64,000 bases of DNA, from contig JBMNFY010000017.1 of the NCBI GenBank assembly GCA_050949565.1, positions 960,001-1,024,000 on the forward strand, read 5' to 3'. Origin of the DNA: Kiritimatiellia bacterium. Its GTDB lineage: Bacteria; Verrucomicrobiota; Kiritimatiellia; RFP12; UBA1067. A model generated the notes under the pieces. The model saw only the letters and a program-made list of their open reading frames with translations, did no database searches and was not told where the DNA came from. Below are positions 10,895 to 48,228 of this stretch, in pieces. Position numbers and translations under genes: made by a program. Numbering within the stretch: the stretch's first letter is position 1; each line of letters begins with the position of its first letter.

Positions 10895-11085
10895 AACCAC
10901 GGAACACACTAAACACACGGAAACAGAGCCATGCCTTTCCGTGTGTTCGGTGTGTTCCGTGGTTAAACAATCGATCCCGATAGCGATCCCGATCCCGATT
11001 TGGATGAAACCTTGAAACCATGAAACCTTGAAACCTTGAAACCAGAAACCAAAGAGAGTTGACGGTTCAACTGCTCTTTTTAGGT
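10895..11085 (+). repeat. ~190-bp composite repeat (long hairpin + ATCCCG hexamers + GAAACCWT octamers + terminator-like hairpin), copy A
   Basis: Near-identical copies at 18376-18541 (+) and 44378-44564 (-). Confidence 0.9.
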
Positions 11086-18375: not shown

Positions 18376-18541
18376 ACACACTAAACACACGGAAACAGAG
18401 CCATGCCTTTCCGTGTGTTCGGTGTGTTCCGTGGTTAAACAATCGATCCCGATAGCGATCCCGATCCCGATTTGGATGAAACCATGAAACCTTGAAACCA
18501 GAAACCAAAGAGAGTTGAAGGTTCAACTGCTCTTTTTAGGT
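18376..18541 (+). repeat. ~190-bp composite repeat, copy B
   Basis: Matches 10895-11085 with fewer octamer units. Confidence 0.9.
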
Positions 18542-18637
18542 TTAACCTCGTCTTTTGTGCGCCGCCCTGCCGCCGTACTCCTGCTCAAAAAGCGGCGTCG
18601 CGCGGAATACCGCTTGCCGCCGCATTCCAAATTTTTC

Positions 18638-19893
18638 GCCAGACTTGCGAAGCGCCGGGAGGGGCAAGCGTCTGCTTGACCGGCGGCGGCCGCGCCGCCG
18701 CTTCTGAACGCAGAACGTCGAACGCAGAACGCCCAACGCAGAAGTTAAAAACTCCTAAATCCTCACTCCTAAACGTCAACTCCGCGCACGGTGCGGAATA
18801 CCGCATCCAAGTTTTTTCGCCAGACTTGCGAAGCGCCGGGAGGGGCAAGCGTCTGCTTGACCGGCGGCGGCCGCGCCGCCGCTTCTGAACGCAGAACGTC
18901 GAACGCAGAACGCCCAACGCAGAAGTTAAAAACTCCTAAATCCTCACTCCTAAATATCAACTCCGCGCATAGCGCGGAATACCGCATCCAAGTTTTTTCG
19001 CCAGACTTGCGAAGCGCCGGGAGGGGCAAGCGTCTGCTTGACCGGCGGCGGCCGCGCCGCCGCTTCTGAACGCAGAACGTCGAACGCAGAACGCCCAACG
19101 CAGAAGTGAAAAACTCCTAAATCCTCACTCCTAAACGTCAACTCCGCGCACGGTGCGGAATACCGCATCCAAATTCATTCGCCAGACTTGCGAAGCACCG
19201 GGAGGGGCAAGCGTCTGCTTGACCGGCGGCGGCCGCGCCGCCGCTTCTGAACGCAGAACGTCGAACGCAGAACGCCCAACGCAGAAGTGAAAAACTCCTA
19301 AATCCTCACTCCTAAATATCAACTCCGCGCACGGTGCGGAATACCGCATCCAAGTTTTTTCGCCAGACTTGCGAAGCACCGGGAGGGGCAAGCGTCTGCT
19401 TGACCGGCGGCGGCCGCGCCGCCGCTTCTGAACGCAGAACGTCGAACGCAGAACGCCCAACGCAGAAGTTAAAAACTCCTAAATCCTCACTCCTAAATAT
19501 CAACTCCGCGCATAGCGCGGAATACCGCTTGCCGCCGCATTCCAAATTCATTCGCCAGACTTGCGAAGCACCGGGAGGGGCAAGCGTCTGCTTGACCGGC
19601 GGCGGCCGCGCCGCCGCTTCTGAACGCAGAACGTCGAACGCAGAACGCCCAACGCAGAAGTTAAAAACTCCTAAATCCTCACTCCTAAACGTCAACTCCG
19701 CGCACGGTGCGGAATACCGCATCCAAGTTTTTTCGCCAGACTTGCGAAGCGCCGGGAGGGGCAAGCGTCTGCTTGACCGGCGGCGGCCGCGCCGCCGCTT
19801 CTGAACGCAGAACGTCGAACGCAGAACGCCCAACGCAGAAGTGAAAAACTCCTAAATCCTCACTCCTAAATGTCAACTCCGCGCGTAGCGCGG
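18638..19893. repeat. Tandem array of 7 units of ~181 bp built from REP palindromes and short tandem modules
   Basis: Unit starts (GCCAGACTTGCGAAGC) at 18638, 18819, 19000, 19181, 19362, 19554, 19735. Confidence 0.95.
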
Positions 19894-43715: not shown

Positions 43716-44195
43716 TTATACCTCCCGCTGATTCACCGCATCCAGCAGCAACGCCAGCGCATGTTCCGTCGCTTGGAGACGCACCGCATCGCGATCCCCC
43801 GCAAAGATTTTGTGCCCCGTACGCACGCCATCCGCCGCCGCCAAACCGAAGCAGACCAGGCCGACCGGCTTCTCCGGCGTGCCGCCCGTCGGCCCGGCGA
43901 TGCCGGTCACCGAGACCGCCAGATCCGTCCCCAGCCGACGGCGCACGCCATCCGCCATCGCGGCGGCGCACCTCTCGCTCACCGCGCCCGCCTGTTCCAG
44001 CACCGGCTCCGGCACACCGAGCAACGTCATCTTCGCCGCATTGGCATAACTGACGATACCCCCCAGAAAAACCGCCGAAGCGCCGGACACCGCCGTGATC
44101 CGCGCCGCGACCATCCCGCCGGTACACGACTCCGCCGTCGCCAGCGTCACGCCGCACGCAACACACCTCTCAACCAACCGACTCGCAAGTTCCAT
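43716..44195 (-). CDS. pncC: CinA C-terminal domain / NMN deamidase
   Basis: ATAESCTGG, GAS, YANAAK, GAVS, TGIAGP. Confidence 0.9.
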   Translation of the reverse strand: MELASRLVERCVACGVTLATAESCTGGMVAARITAVSGASAVFLGGIVSYANAAKMTLLGVPEPVLEQAGAVSERCAAAMADGVRRRLGTDLAVSVTGIAGPTGGTPEKPVGLVCFGLAAADGVRTGHKIFAGDRDAVRLQATEHALALLLDAVNQREV

Positions 44196-44249
44196 CTCTG
44201 CCCCCCTTAAAAAGCCAGATTATCATAGATCGCAACGCGAATGTCTACC

Positions 44250-44275
44250 CCCCAGACACGGAGGTCTGGGGCCAC
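44250..44275 (-). repeat. REP of the island family (GTGG-CCCCAGAC-CTCCGT-GTCTGGGG)
   Basis: GTRG tetranucleotide + 8-bp stem; homologous to 45923-45949, 47250-47276, 47614-47685. Confidence 0.85.
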
Positions 44276-44377
44276 GAGATGGAGGGCCGGGGCAACGAGA
44301 TGGAGGGCCGTGCGAGCCGAGCGCGTGTTGTATGTGTGCGCCGTCGGGCGCGGGCGTCCCCGCCGCTGAAAATTGAG

Positions 44378-44564
44378 CCTAAAAAGAGCAGTTGAACCTT
44401 CAACTCTCTTTGGTTTCTGGTTTCATGGTTTCAAGGTTTCATGGTTTCAAGGTTTCATCCAAATCGGGATCGGGATCGCTATCGGGATCGATTGTTTAAC
44501 CACGGAACACACCGAACACACGGAAAGGCATGGTTCTGTTTCCGTGTGTTTAGTGTGTTCCGTG
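44378..44564 (-). repeat. ~190-bp composite repeat, copy C
   Basis: Reverse complement of 10895-11085. Confidence 0.9.
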
Positions 44565-44695
44565 TGTTAAGTCACGGCTCCAGGTTAACACTTGGTTCTT
44601 GATGGTTGGTTGAACATTGATGACATAGGTCGCGGAGCCCAAGCCACCAATCACAAAGGCGACTGTGACGGGTCGCGCAACACCGTGCGCGCCCC

Positions 44696-44800
44696 GTCAC
44701 AGTCGCCTTTCGGCTGAATCGCTGTTTTGGACTGTAGCACTTTTTTAGGTGGTTTTACAAGGATTTTTTGATGATTTTCGGCGGTTTTCGGAGGCAGACG
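44696..44800 (-). CRISPR. Solitary CRISPR-like repeat (GTCCAAAACAGCGATTCAGCCGAAAGGCGACTGTGAC, 44732-44696) with AT-rich leader-like upstream sequence
   Basis: 37 nt, GTC start, GCC-GAAA-GGC hairpin, GTGAC end, A-tract leader, directly downstream of two CARF genes; no second direct repeat. Confidence 0.45.
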
Positions 44801-44829
44801 CCCCCCCAAAAAACCTCTGCGTCTCTGCG

Positions 44830-45909
44830 TTAAATAGACTCCGGTAGCGGCGTAGGCGGGATGCCGACCAGATCGACCGCCAGGCTAAAAAAGGTGCGTG
44901 CTTCTCTGGTGTTCGCCGGACGTATCGCGTGTGTCGCTTCGTTGCGGATGTCGCAGTACTTTTTGAGCTTGCCGCTGAAATTCGTGCCGAAGGGATGCCC
45001 TAAATCGTTGAGTATTTTGACGATGTTCTGGAGACCAAGCGTCATATCGCGGCCTTTGCCTTCGGAGACAAATGACGTGCGCAACCCATCGATCTGCGCT
45101 CTTTCGTAACGGCCATCCCCGTCGGGCTTGATTCCGGTCTTTTCTTCAAGAAAAAGGCGGGCGGCGTGTTCGAGTGCCTTGTAGGTCAGGCAGAACGAAC
45201 CGTCTGGATCGTCGTGGCGCAGGGCGTGATCCGACCATGCAAGAATATCGGCCACGATATCGCGCGGCGCACGATTCTCAAGGCGTTTGTCATAAGCCTT
45301 GGCGCGGTCATAATCGAAGCGTCGCCAATGGTGACAGGTGTAGGCGGTCGCCCACTCTTTGGCATGCGTCTGGTTGTGCGGCCTGAGAATGCGTTCGGCG
45401 GCGTAGAAGTCGCCCGCGTCAAAAAAGTCACGCGCAAGCACCAAATCCCGCTCGCGGAAATAACCGGCTGGGTTGAAGGCGGTGATGCGCTCGGTGCCGG
45501 TCTTGACGACGCCGTCGGCTCGATCGCCGGTGGTGAACACGATGTCGCCGATCTGTTCGTCGAGCGCGGCCAACGTGGCGGCGGCGGTCATCTGCTTGGT
45601 GCCGGATGTCGGGTTGACGAGCAGGCGCTCGCCCTCCTTCACCTGGCCGCGCACCCGGCGTATCACCGAGCGGATATGCTGCCGGGAGGATTCCAGGTCG
45701 TCCGGATGTTCCAGCGGGAAGCGCCCGCCGTACGAAGCGTGGCCTTCGGCGATCAGGTCGGCGATGGCCAGCGAGTCCGGCGCGGTCGAAGGGACGAGCC
45801 AGAACTTGCGGGGGTTGAGCAGCTCGAGCGTGCGGCGCAAGCCGGAGGCGAGGTCAGAGTGTCTGCCGGCTGTGCCGGTGCCGACGGTGAGGATGAGTAG
45901 GTTTGTCAT
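44830..45909 (-). CDS. CARF-HEPN CRISPR ancillary protein (TIGR02710/Csm6-like)
   Basis: LILTVGTG strand 1, VNPTSGTKQM CARF motif, C-terminal RNEATH (RxxxxH). Confidence 0.75.
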   Translation of the reverse strand: MTNLLILTVGTGTAGRHSDLASGLRRTLELLNPRKFWLVPSTAPDSLAIADLIAEGHASYGGRFPLEHPDDLESSRQHIRSVIRRVRGQVKEGERLLVNPTSGTKQMTAAATLAALDEQIGDIVFTTGDRADGVVKTGTERITAFNPAGYFRERDLVLARDFFDAGDFYAAERILRPHNQTHAKEWATAYTCHHWRRFDYDRAKAYDKRLENRAPRDIVADILAWSDHALRHDDPDGSFCLTYKALEHAARLFLEEKTGIKPDGDGRYERAQIDGLRTSFVSEGKGRDMTLGLQNIVKILNDLGHPFGTNFSGKLKKYCDIRNEATHAIRPANTREARTFFSLAVDLVGIPPTPLPESI

Positions 45910-45922
45910 GGGTGTTCCTTTC

Positions 45923-45949
45923 CCCCCGGACACGGAGGTCCGGGGGCAC
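45923..45949 (-). repeat. REP of the island family
   Basis: GTGC-CCCCGGAC-CTCCGT-GTCCGGGG just upstream of the RBS of the 45909 gene. Confidence 0.85.
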
Positions 45950-45970
45950 GAGAACGGGGTGACGAGATGG

Positions 45971-47232
45971 TTAGCAAAGCAGAGCCTCAAACTTCGTGAT
46001 GGCGTCGCCGAGATCCTTTTTCAGCTTTTCTGCCTTCCTGGCATTGTGGCTGTGGCCGCCGTGATTGATGTCGTTTCGCCCTTGCGTCAAAGTATCATAG
46101 TGCTTCTCCACCTCCGGATCGATTTTGTCCTTTAGTTTCTCGGCCAGTCCGCTATCCTCTTTCTTCCAAGAGCCGGTTCTCCAAGCGAGCAGCGCTGAAG
46201 TATATTCACGGCGCTTCACTTCATCTTCGCGTTTGGGGTAGAGCCTTTTCAGGTCAGCGACGAACTCCTGCGCGTAGTACGAGACGATCGTCTCCTGCAA
46301 AAGCGTGTAGCCTTGCGGGATCAAATCGTGCTCATACGCCCAGCGCGCCGCGCGTATGCCGTTTTTCAAATCTTTGTCCTGATACGCCGCGAAAACGTCG
46401 CCCAACCCTGCCAACACCGGCTTCAACTGCGGTAGCTCGCTACATTGCGTTGCCGGTCCCAACTGATTCAAAATGTTCGACTCGAAATTGAAATCCTGAA
46501 TATCTTTGCAACGGCTGGAATGAACCATCTGTGTGAACTTGTTAAGAGCGCCGGTTAAACTACGCAGCGCGAGTAATTCATCGGTGCGCGTCTCCTCTTT
46601 CGCGGCCAATGGTTTAGTGTCTTGCCAGGCGAGTCTGTTCAGATCGCCGGCATCGCCGAAGCGCTTGAAATCGCGGATCGCCTTCACCCAGTCATTAAGT
46701 TGAAAGAACGGGGTCAGGTCGAAGATCGGAGCGCGGCGATCAGCGGGATCGGGATACTCTTTCTCCACATCAGCCGCCCTGCCCAGCACTTCGAAGGCGC
46801 CGTAGTAGCACCCGACCAGCTTCGTGCCCTTTACGACTTCGAGGTAGTTGAGCAGCACGGACATTATCAGCGGCAGGGAGCGGAAGGAGTGGGTGACATC
46901 AAAAACGATCTCTGCCTCTTCGGGAATGTGTTCGTTGACCGTTTCAAAAATCTCCCAAAACTCTTCGACGCTGGAGCCGCCCGGTATGCCGACCTTCTCT
47001 GGCTCGGGCAATCCGTGCGTGTCAAATTCCGCGCATAGCTTCTGCCAATGCGTTTCCGCAGCATCCCGCGTACAGAAAATGAGCGTTTTTCTGCGCCGCA
47101 GGCTACAAGCTTGCGCATGGCGGTCTGCACATAGGTGACCACTCCCGAATCGCTGGCGGGGGCATCGGGCTTGAGATAGACACAGGGCTTATAGGTGCCG
47201 GTGCCGAGGAACGATACGTAGGTTTTTTTCAT
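45971..47232 (-). CDS. csx1: Csx1-type CARF-HEPN ribonuclease (TIGR02221-like), one-base frameshift at 47086-47090
   Basis: VSFLGTGTY, FDVTHSFRSLP, YYGAFE, PIFDLTPF, RNDINH; adding one A to the A5 run joins the two ORFs (AEKTLIFCT...). Confidence 0.8.
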
Positions 47233-47249
47233 GGTTGTTTCTCCTCTCC

Positions 47250-47289: not shown

Positions 47290-48228
47290 CTAGGGTGGGG
47301 TGTGGGTTTTTAGCAGGGTTTCGAGTGTGCCGCCGGGGCGGATGTAGCCGTGCGTGATACGCGCGGCGCGATCCAGCACATAGCGGTTGCACCAGATGGC
47401 GCGTTGTTTGTTGATACCGGTGCCGGGTGCCGAGGGCGAGAGCACCAGCGCCCAGCCCTCCGCACAGGCACGCGCGACAGCAGGCGGCAACCGCTTCGGT
47501 ATGCCGCCGGGCATGACGTGTATAAAGGGGCGCCGCACAGCCAGGCAACGCGCCAGCACACCGCGCTCCTGCGGGCTGGTAAAGGTAGAAATAACAGGTG
47601 CTGGACACGGAGGGGCTGGACACGGAGGTCCAGCCTTACGATATCGAGTGTCCGTATCGTGGGGCCGGACCTCCGCGTCCGGCCCCTCTGAGGCCACATA
47701 CGCCACCAGCGCCTCATGCAGCAACTCGAGATTGCCGCAGTGGTAGGTAGTCACGGGGCCGAAACGGTCGTTATCCCAGCGGGCGGGATTGTCACGCACA
47801 TAGGCGCGGATGTTCTCAAGCTCGCGGCGCGAGGTGATCAGGTTGTCATAGTAGCTGGACATCCAGAGACTGGTGCCGATGTCCGGGCACTGTCCGGCCC
47901 GGACGGCGGCGTGGTACAGATGCGTCGTGAAGCTTTTGAACCCCTGTATCAGGTAAGAGAGGTGGTTGGGTTTGTTTGTCGGGCGGCGGTGAATGCGGAT
48001 CACGGCGTGAAAGTGATTGGGCATCACGACGGATGCGTCGCGGTATGCCTCCGGATGACGCGCAAACATGCCCTCCCAACTGCTTCCGACCTTCTCTCCC
48101 AGAGCGTTCAACTCGCACTTGTCATCCGCAATGACACCGAACATCGTCTTGTTCTGCGCGACCTGCATCGTGACAAAGAACCAGCCGTCGGAGTAGTTGA
48201 TGTTCGAATTGCGGAGCGGGTTGGACAT
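47290..48228 (-). CDS. REP-associated tyrosine transposase (RAYT, HUH Y1) fused to a DprA/SMF-like SLOG domain
   Basis: YSDGWFFVT, VVMPNHFHAVI, GFKS, W..SYYD.LI...EL..IRAYV..NP..W; C-terminal GNLELL...VISTFTSPQE...G.ALVLSP...A..CNRYV...PGGTL. Confidence 0.85.
   Translation of the reverse strand: MSNPLRNSNINYSDGWFFVTMQVAQNKTMFGVIADDKCELNALGEKVGSSWEGMFARHPEAYRDASVVMPNHFHAVIRIHRRPTNKPNHLSYLIQGFKSFTTHLYHAAVRAGQCPDIGTSLWMSSYYDNLITSRRELENIRAYVRDNPARWDNDRFGPVTTYHCGNLELLHEALVAYVASEGPDAEVRPHDTDTRYRKAGPPCPAPPCPAPVISTFTSPQERGVLARCLAVRRPFIHVMPGGIPKRLPPAVARACAEGWALVLSPSAPGTGINKQRAIWCNRYVLDRAARITHGYIRPGGTLETLLKTHTPP
47614..47685. repeat. Inverted REP doublet inside the RAYT ORF
   Basis: GGCTGGACACGGAGGTCCAGCCTTAC and GTGGGGCCGGACCTCCGCGTCCGGCCC; a partial third copy at ~47600. 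Confidence 0.8.

Follow-up and report, generated by a model that had tools for sequence, protein, structure and literature searches.

RNA anti-CRISPRs (Racrs) are described as solitary repeat units found in phages, prophages and plasmids, which mimic the repeats of the host CRISPR system that they inhibit (Camara-Wilpert et al. 2023, PMC10651486). The CRISPR RNA (crRNA)-like regulators, namely CreA/CreR and the crRNA-like RNA (crlRNA) mini-arrays, are reported to consist of two direct repeat-like units flanking a spacer that has partial complementarity to a promoter, require an effector, and have been described for types I and V-A, not for type III (10.1101/2023.03.10.532045, 10.1101/2024.12.27.630466, 10.1101/2023.03.03.530964). 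Mini-arrays located near type III loci and showing neither conservation nor targets were judged likely to be degraded and non-functional (Shmakov et al. 2023, 10.1101/2023.03.03.530964). In types II and V, the trans-activating crRNA (tracrRNA) forms a repeat:anti-repeat duplex (10.1101/2023.03.03.530964). This study focuses on a locus that shares traits with each of these systems, i.e., a single 37-nucleotide (nt) CRISPR repeat preceded by a leader and followed by a 25-bp hairpin partly built from the repeat, in the genome of a Kiritimatiellia bacterium (GenBank assembly GCA_050949565.1, contig JBMNFY010000017.1, positions 960,001 to 1,024,000). The whole stretch of DNA analysed, hereafter the window, is 64,000 nt long. 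The reading favoured here, to which we attach a probability of about 0.65, is that the site is the vestigial front end (leader and first repeat) of a type III-B array, a relic rather than a new regulatory RNA. The locus is made up of the following parts, in coordinates of the window:

44733..44797, minus strand: CRISPR leader, as aligned with the leaders of G001, G014, G035, L035 and L043
44696..44732, minus strand: lone 37-nt CRISPR repeat, its family being associated with type III-B loci
44655..44710, minus strand: 25-bp hairpin with arms at 44655-44679 and 44686-44710 and a 6-nt loop at 44680-44685
44623..44654, minus strand: 32-nt unique tail from the hairpin to an insertion sequence (IS) remnant, beginning T-rich, TTTGTGATT as counted from the last stem pairs
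44623-44797: unique stretch comprising the tail, the hairpin, the repeat and the leader

As in the type III cases of Shmakov et al. (2023), a repeat-like unit lies here outside a working array, by type III-associated genes, is not widely conserved and has no target that could be detected; unlike those cases as they are presented, the effector module is gone, the leader is intact and an exact 15-nt anti-repeat is set in a 25-bp palindrome. In the passages of that work considered here (10.1101/2023.03.03.530964), no standalone type III repeat is described as paired with an anti-repeat. With the Racrs as described (PMC10651486), the window unit shares its standing as a solitary repeat mimic, the promoter-like element upstream and the lack of a spacer array. 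Unlike them, it is chromosomal, its host has no matching system that could be found (the repeats of the host's own arrays are unrelated and no type III genes were detected), and a longer hairpin encloses both its repeat stem and its expected cleavage site. Judged from the open reading frames (ORFs) of the island, its carrier is a chromosomal island of 3 kb and not a phage, prophage or plasmid. Like CreA, CreR and the crlRNAs (10.1101/2023.03.10.532045, 10.1101/2024.12.27.630466, 10.1101/2023.03.03.530964), the locus presents a degenerate CRISPR unit kept within a cas locus; unlike what is reported for them, it holds one repeat and an inverted partial copy, with no target or effector found. A second direct unit is absent, and complementarity of the spacer to a promoter was not found by short-word blastn, weak seed-only pairing being outside the reach of that search. 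A guide of the CreA/CreR kind thus lacks support, because two direct units, target and effector are all lacking.

The resemblance to tracrRNA lies in a sequence complementary to the repeat, which would form a repeat:anti-repeat duplex; unlike tracrRNA, which works in trans with Cas9 or Cas12, the anti-repeat of the window is in cis and spans 15 nt of the repeat. Type III-B systems are not known to use a tracrRNA. The locus is also reminiscent of an intrinsic terminator, with a G+C-rich stem-loop and a T-rich stretch located 3' of a promoter-like site and the CARF genes and 5' of the promoter-like site of the next gene. Unlike a usual intrinsic terminator, its 25-bp stem is far longer, its T-tract is interrupted (6 T in 9, TTTGTGATT), and half of the stem is a CRISPR repeat.

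The repeat is both solitary and a genuine member of a CRISPR repeat family, as the initial annotation, made from the letters of the window, had proposed. Within the window, the 37-mer gave a single match when up to 3 mismatches were allowed, and none of 100 shuffles matched; in the whole genome of the organism (G000), the search returned the repeat itself and its inverted 15-mer, the remaining matches being no longer than 17 nt (E >=1.4). An array on contig C89 of G001, a genome of the same genus, is composed of more than 50 units with a period of 71-81 nt; its repeat is 84% identical to the 37-mer, and a homologous leader precedes it. Arrays of the same 37-nt repeat family were also found in G014:C11 and G035:C70/C73. 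Altogether, 9 of the 41 related genomes (G000 counted) have a match to 44623-44830, and one of them, G004, contains this entire stretch at 97% identity. The 22-nt 3' half of the repeat family occurs at 12 loci of the species-representative contig collection, all in metagenome-assembled genomes (MAGs) of Kiritimatiellia, Lentisphaerae or 'Verrucomicrobia', and the TCAGCCGAAAGGCG core of the repeat is unchanged in the seven sequences that were aligned. A lone 22-nt 3' half of the family was also observed between two genes at L041:401-422, on a 542-kb Lentisphaeria MAG contig, with no array within 400 nt on either side and no anti-repeat.

Judged by alignment, the A-rich stretch 5' of the 37-mer is a real CRISPR leader, homologous to the leaders of related arrays, which agrees with the A-tract leader initially proposed. 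Common to the aligned leaders are the CCTCCGAAA motif, a TTG..AAAAC box and, extending into the first two bases of the repeat, a TA..GT box. The leader of the window bears a -35-like box, TTGTAA (44760-44755), and a -10-like box, TACAGT (44736-44731), with 18 nt between them. This pair is promoter-like and may be active; a simple consensus promoter scan did not flag it. Read along the minus strand, the stop codon of a 386-codon ORF (44830) is followed by a ACGCAGAG-type element, the A-rich stretch, the 37-mer, 26 nt and the anti-repeat 15-mer. A CRISPR array comprises at least two direct repeats with unique spacers, and a single copy was counted in the window, in the genome and in each of the five assembled copies of the locus. 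A candidate for a degenerate second direct repeat after a 41-nt spacer was rejected, about 9 of its 37 positions agreeing by manual count, and an internal stem of the repeat proposed from covariation between G000 and G001 was dropped because the pairing is not kept in G014 and G035.

By gene order, the 37-nt repeat family is associated with type III-B, because the arrays of G035:C70 and G014:C11 follow cas10/cmr loci. In G035:C70, the array is preceded, in this order, by genes for a Csm6-type ring nuclease and a TIGR02710 CARF protein, by cas10/cmr2 (match value 2.3e-68), cmr3, cmr4 (7.7e-46), cmr5, cmr6 and cmr1, by a gene for a four-helix-bundle protein, by cas1 and cas2, and by the leader; G014:C11 has the same type III-B core. 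Synteny of the G001 array with the window locus was considered and rejected, as its flank matches contig C11 of the window's own genome, which places the G001 locus elsewhere in the chromosome.

The effector genes of such a locus were not found in the organism's own genome, which is 92% complete: cas10, cmr1, cmr3, cmr4, cmr5 and cmr6 were sought with the Cas10 protein of G035, with TIGR02577 and TIGR02580, and by tblastn. Of the 20 proteins that the type III-B loci of G014 and G035 contributed to the tblastn comparison, only those of cas1 and cas2, the four-helix-bundle protein and the CARF protein of G035 gave a match, and the cas1 and cas2 matches lie only beside the unrelated array of contig C8. 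The cas10 model matched three of five genomes, i.e., the array-bearing G001, G014 and G035, and not the stub-bearing G000 and G004 (92% and 78% complete, respectively). The genome's own arrays, at C8:398307-403680 and C10:2-4773, consist of about 80 units each, with repeats of 33 nt and 29 nt that are unrelated to the 37-mer and that may resemble I-C and I-E repeats. The Cas6 models TIGR01877, PF01881 and PF10040 gave no match in G000, G001, G004, G014 or G035. Among these, G001, G014 and G035 (L021, L022) possess complete type III-B loci and long arrays, yet no Cas6 model match; they have either a divergent Cas6 or a Cas6-independent processing of crRNA.

An inverted-repeat search recovered the hairpin as it had been drawn in the initial annotation, with arms of 25 nt each, 24 of the 25 positions paired (96% complementarity) and a loop of 6 nt. 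Also borne out was a single 37-nt unit on the minus strand (44732-44696) followed by 26 nt and by the exact complement of its last 15 nt. The 5' arm is composed of these last 15 nt of the repeat and the next 10 nt, the 3' arm is an inverted copy of both, and the centre of the palindrome falls 13 nt beyond the repeat. The further claim that a degenerate inverted copy of the whole repeat extends beyond the 15 exact nt did not hold up. As DNA, 44637-44654 aligns to the rest of the repeat with a local score of 5, which is at chance level (equalled in 3564/5000 shuffles and in 56% of background windows); as an RNA duplex, the match is marginal (-16 kcal/mol, equalled in 10% of shuffles and 3.7% of background windows). 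The predicted RNA fold of the minus strand from 44740 to 44620 reaches -67 kcal/mol (z = -6.2), and none of 200 shuffles was as stable. Hairpins of this size are rare in the genome: a scan of its 4.66 Mb (stem >=22, <=1 mismatch, loop 3-10) returned 21, of which 14 have a stem of at least 24, and eight of these 14 form one repeated family.

The anti-repeat has no counterpart at the ends of related arrays. The longest inverted match of the last unit within the next 150 nt was recorded at six distinct array ends (G001, G035:C73, G014, L038, L040 and L045; the sequence of L015 and L044 equals that of G014). It measured 0-6 nt at these six ends, none of which exceeded 6 nt, vs. 15 nt in all five copies of the window locus. 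G014 carries an unrelated, G+C-rich hairpin of 12 bp directly after its last repeat. Array-end hairpins thus occur in the repeat family, but none is built from the repeat. When the 66-nt hairpin stretch was searched against the organism's own genome with short-word blastn, no match was longer than 16 nt when exact, or than 19 nt when one mismatch was allowed, all had E >=0.049, and none lay inside the island that surrounds the locus. At gathering thresholds, Rfam gave 0 matches anywhere in the window, and the 178-nt unique stretch had no match in the phage and plasmid collections. A coding reading of the 3' arm was rejected as well, since no Pfam family matched the ORFs 44572-44700 (minus strand), 44651-44809 (minus strand) and 44592-44717 (plus strand); the C-terminal part of the first is the IS end. 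Contigs of the RNA runs X15 and X16 lie on parts of the CARF-HEPN gene and none on 44636-44769, such contigs being unable to show absence, starts or ends.

The single-repeat structure was recovered in five assemblies (G000, G004/L009, L031, L032 and L033), which represent three hairpin haplotypes, and in all three metagenome contigs that hold the exact 37-mer. Contigs of two DNA runs from different habitats, X10 and X11, span 44504-44829 and 44593-44829, respectively, with 0 other letters. The stretch is present at >=0.95 of sampled words in 14 DNA runs from 13 studies, mostly of digesters, bioreactors and sludge. In a comparison set of representative genomes and three metagenome contigs, the hairpin arrangement was found in one species-level lineage only.

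The five copies fall into two haplotype groups, split by a 13-nt insertion or deletion at the junction of the tail and the IS end (44618-44630). Variable sites are distributed unequally: 9 in 1,161 nt of the CARF-HEPN gene, 1 in 105 nt of leader and repeat, and about 44 in 750 nt of the TM1812 gene. The TM1812 gene is far more diverged between the groups than its CARF-HEPN neighbour, which suggests recombination. The only differences between L031 and L033 over 2.2 kb are at 44692, 44691 and 44680, a cluster of three changes that spans 13 nt of the 5' arm and loop, the 3' arm being constant. As RNA, the G000 type pairs at 24/25 positions with one G-A mismatch (-47.2 kcal/mol) and the G004 type at 25/25 with one G-U pair (-50.2 kcal/mol); as DNA, the two types are about equal (-33.6 and -32.1). 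The three-site cluster could be a single multi-base event at the hairpin, a conversion from another allele, or the outcome of selection on the RNA stem.

The neighbourhood of the locus comprises the following features:

44830..45990, minus strand: CARF-HEPN gene of TIGR02710 type, probably starting at the Met of ORF residue 28
45971..47232, minus strand: TM1812-type CARF gene with a DxTHG motif (TIGR02221, 3.9e-25)
44798..44839: ACGCAGAG-type element at the junction of the CARF-HEPN stop codon and the leader, with dozens of copies in the genome
44564..44622, minus strand: isolated right terminus of an IS3-family element, comprising its last 59 nt and 98-100% identical to the terminus in four full copies
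44373-44564: composite module of ~190 nt, with ~60 genome copies at 82-99% identity
44304-44378: repeat module with ~25 genome copies
44265..47246: island of 2,982 nt that encloses the whole locus from leader to tail, both CARF genes, the ACGCAGAG-type element, the IS end and two intergenic repeat modules

The two genes upstream of the leader are CARF genes, as initially annotated. The first matches TIGR02710 (6.3e-16), the Csm6 HEPN family PF09670 (3.7e-4) and the CARF family PF09651 (7.2e-3), all under curated cut-offs, and its protein carries an RNEATH motif. It is 41% identical, or ~37% by tblastn, to the CARF gene product encoded 5' of cas10 in G035:C70; between G000 and G004, it shows 5 synonymous and 4 non-synonymous codon differences. 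The second, recognized by its TM1812-type match and its DxTHG motif, is frameshifted in G000, where its N-terminus MKKTYVSFLGTG is in another frame, and intact in G004; an assembly error could explain the frameshift. The island is missing from G002:C228, of the same genus, in which a RAYT-like gene abuts the promoter region of the GH141-like gene, a difference that reflects either a deletion in G002 or an insertion in the window genome. Both island junctions display similar ~35-nt motifs built from a 21-nt period. Adjoining the island, 47290-48228 (minus strand) is a 312-aa ORF resembling Y1 transposases (RAYT-like; REP-associated tyrosine transposase model, 7.9e-12, under cut-off), with a 150-nt internal deletion in G004. 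This transposase might mobilise the many hairpin-bearing intergenic modules of the genome.

The intergenic space downstream of the CARF genes (44167-44829) is a mosaic of repeat modules, an IS piece and the unique stretch. The full copies of the IS, at C10:228368, C5:9432, C5:10816 and C18:22155, encode HTH_Tnp_1 and rve proteins in an IS3-family layout. The composite module combines short tandem units (TGAAACCT, CGATCC and TTCCGTGTG) with a hairpin of 26-nt arms, and is also present at 10937-11050 and 18409-18507. Some copies of the ACGCAGAG-type element stand in long tandem arrays with periods of 120, 128, 300 and 623 nt, e.g., at C17:453479-455428 every 120 nt and at C17:127-1689 every 128 nt. 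The window itself also contains two tandem arrays, one at 18620-19884 (unit of 181 nt, 6.9 copies, 94% matches) and one at 983-1493 (unit of 255 nt, 2.0 copies, 99%).

These observations are brought together most readily by the decay of a type III-B locus. A locus like that of G035 would have lost cas10 through cas2, its CARF gene becoming joined to the leader at a repeat element that occurs genome-wide. The array would have shrunk to its first repeat with the loss of all spacers, and an IS3-family element would have inserted nearby before most of it was lost in turn. The palindrome may have arisen by inverted duplication of 15 nt of repeat and the 10 following nt, most likely during the rearrangement that removed the array; fold-back or template-switch copying would yield such a product. 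The leader promoter, if active, would produce an RNA of ~80-90 nt that starts inside the repeat and folds into the hairpin. This transcript would probably end at the U-rich stretch, and the hairpin would serve at most as a terminator or insulator before the GH141-like gene; a promoter-like site belonging to that gene lies at 44247-44219.

Several points weigh against this reading. A completeness of 92% leaves room for a type III-B locus on an unassembled piece of the genome. One further X11 contig, of 151 nt at a depth of 2.1 and with letters that are not readable, consists of 35 nt of the repeat, ~42 nt, a full repeat and the hairpin with G004-type letters, which suggests that some strains hold at least two repeats before the same hairpin; the hairpin would then be an array-end feature and not a deletion scar. 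The leader and the repeat are intact and, leader site 44763 excepted, identical in the five copies, whose overall divergence of ~1-2.5% affords little power to see decay in them. The hairpin has been retained in both haplotype groups, and the three-site change that improves its pairing would also fit selection on an RNA stem. Finally, the U-tract 3' of the stem is weak, and in a simple terminator scan nothing but an inner form of the hairpin with 5 pairs (44676-44659) was flagged.

Among the outcomes that the initial annotation had itself named as refuting were a rearrangement scar and a collapsed or misassembled array. The former agrees with the solo IS3 end 32 nt beyond the hairpin. The latter, in which the single repeat would be an artefact of collapse or misjoining, could have been expected insofar as 37-nt repeats can collapse in short-read graphs; a collapsed array is nevertheless very unlikely, because five assemblies and the X10 and X11 contigs, which with 0 differences bridge leader and IS end, share the single-repeat form, and the same assembly resolved two arrays of ~80 units each, so that artefacts of either kind can practically be set aside. 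It is also rather unlikely, although less far-fetched, that the locus is the normal distal end of a small and still variable array, its hairpin being this lineage's array terminator that blocks processing of the last repeat and its single-repeat form a collapse by recombination. The X11 contig with two repeats ~42 nt apart before the hairpin speaks for such an end, as does the 12-bp hairpin after the last repeat of G014, which points to terminator-like array-end hairpins in the family. The two-repeat form is however a single contig, as short, shallow and unreadable as described above, whereas all five assembled copies and the main X10 and X11 contigs have one repeat, no effector or adaptation genes of this system were found in the genome, and none of the six related array ends has an anti-repeat.

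The remaining proposals give the hairpin a function of its own. The initial annotation had suggested a self-masking crRNA mimic or a regulator of the CARF operon, and in a fuller form the locus would encode a small RNA, a repeat driven by the leader promoter with its processing site and 8-nt tag sequestered by the hairpin. In the manner of a Racr or a crRNA-like RNA, it would serve as a decoy for type III-B complexes, either the cell's own or incoming ones, or take part in regulation connected with the CARF genes. Solitary repeat units are reported to act as RNA anti-CRISPRs (PMC10651486). Promoter-like boxes that are intact and conserved with relatives, a structure that is very stable and rare in the genome, its presence in both haplotype groups with clustered changes that improve RNA pairing, a possible two-repeat allele, and a carrier common in digesters and sludge (the 14 DNA runs of 13 studies) would all suit such an RNA. 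The mimic reading nonetheless lacks support, because the partners that it needs were not found in the genome: neither cas10/cmr, another cognate effector nor Cas6 was detected, and the spacer-like part has no target match there. Moreover, nothing similar turned up in the phage and plasmid collections, the arrangement is confined to one species-level lineage, Racrs ride mobile elements that attack hosts with a matching system, which is not so here, and an IS scar adjoins the site. We consider a functional small RNA improbable. Equally doubtful is the idea that the anti-repeat is a selected cap in cis, locking the last repeat of a type III-B array, in this case its single one, into a 25-bp helix and making the leader transcript self-terminating and processing-proof, and that it was kept after the loss of the effectors as an insulator or as a stable RNA whose repeat sponges type III-B complexes brought in by mobile elements. 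If so, the three-base change that makes RNA pairing complete and the two-repeat contig would be signs of ongoing selection and use. Were the hairpin functional, type III repeats would gain their first described cis anti-repeat, a claim for which the present evidence falls short.

If the locus is the relic that we favour, it offers a clean and datable example of the decay of a type III-B locus, in which the effector and adaptation genes and the spacers were lost first, and in which a Kiritimatiellia lineage widespread in anaerobic digesters has kept the CARF effectors along with the leader and one repeat. Such a relic would bear on what makes orphan CARF genes common, and on the way in which lone repeats are annotated.

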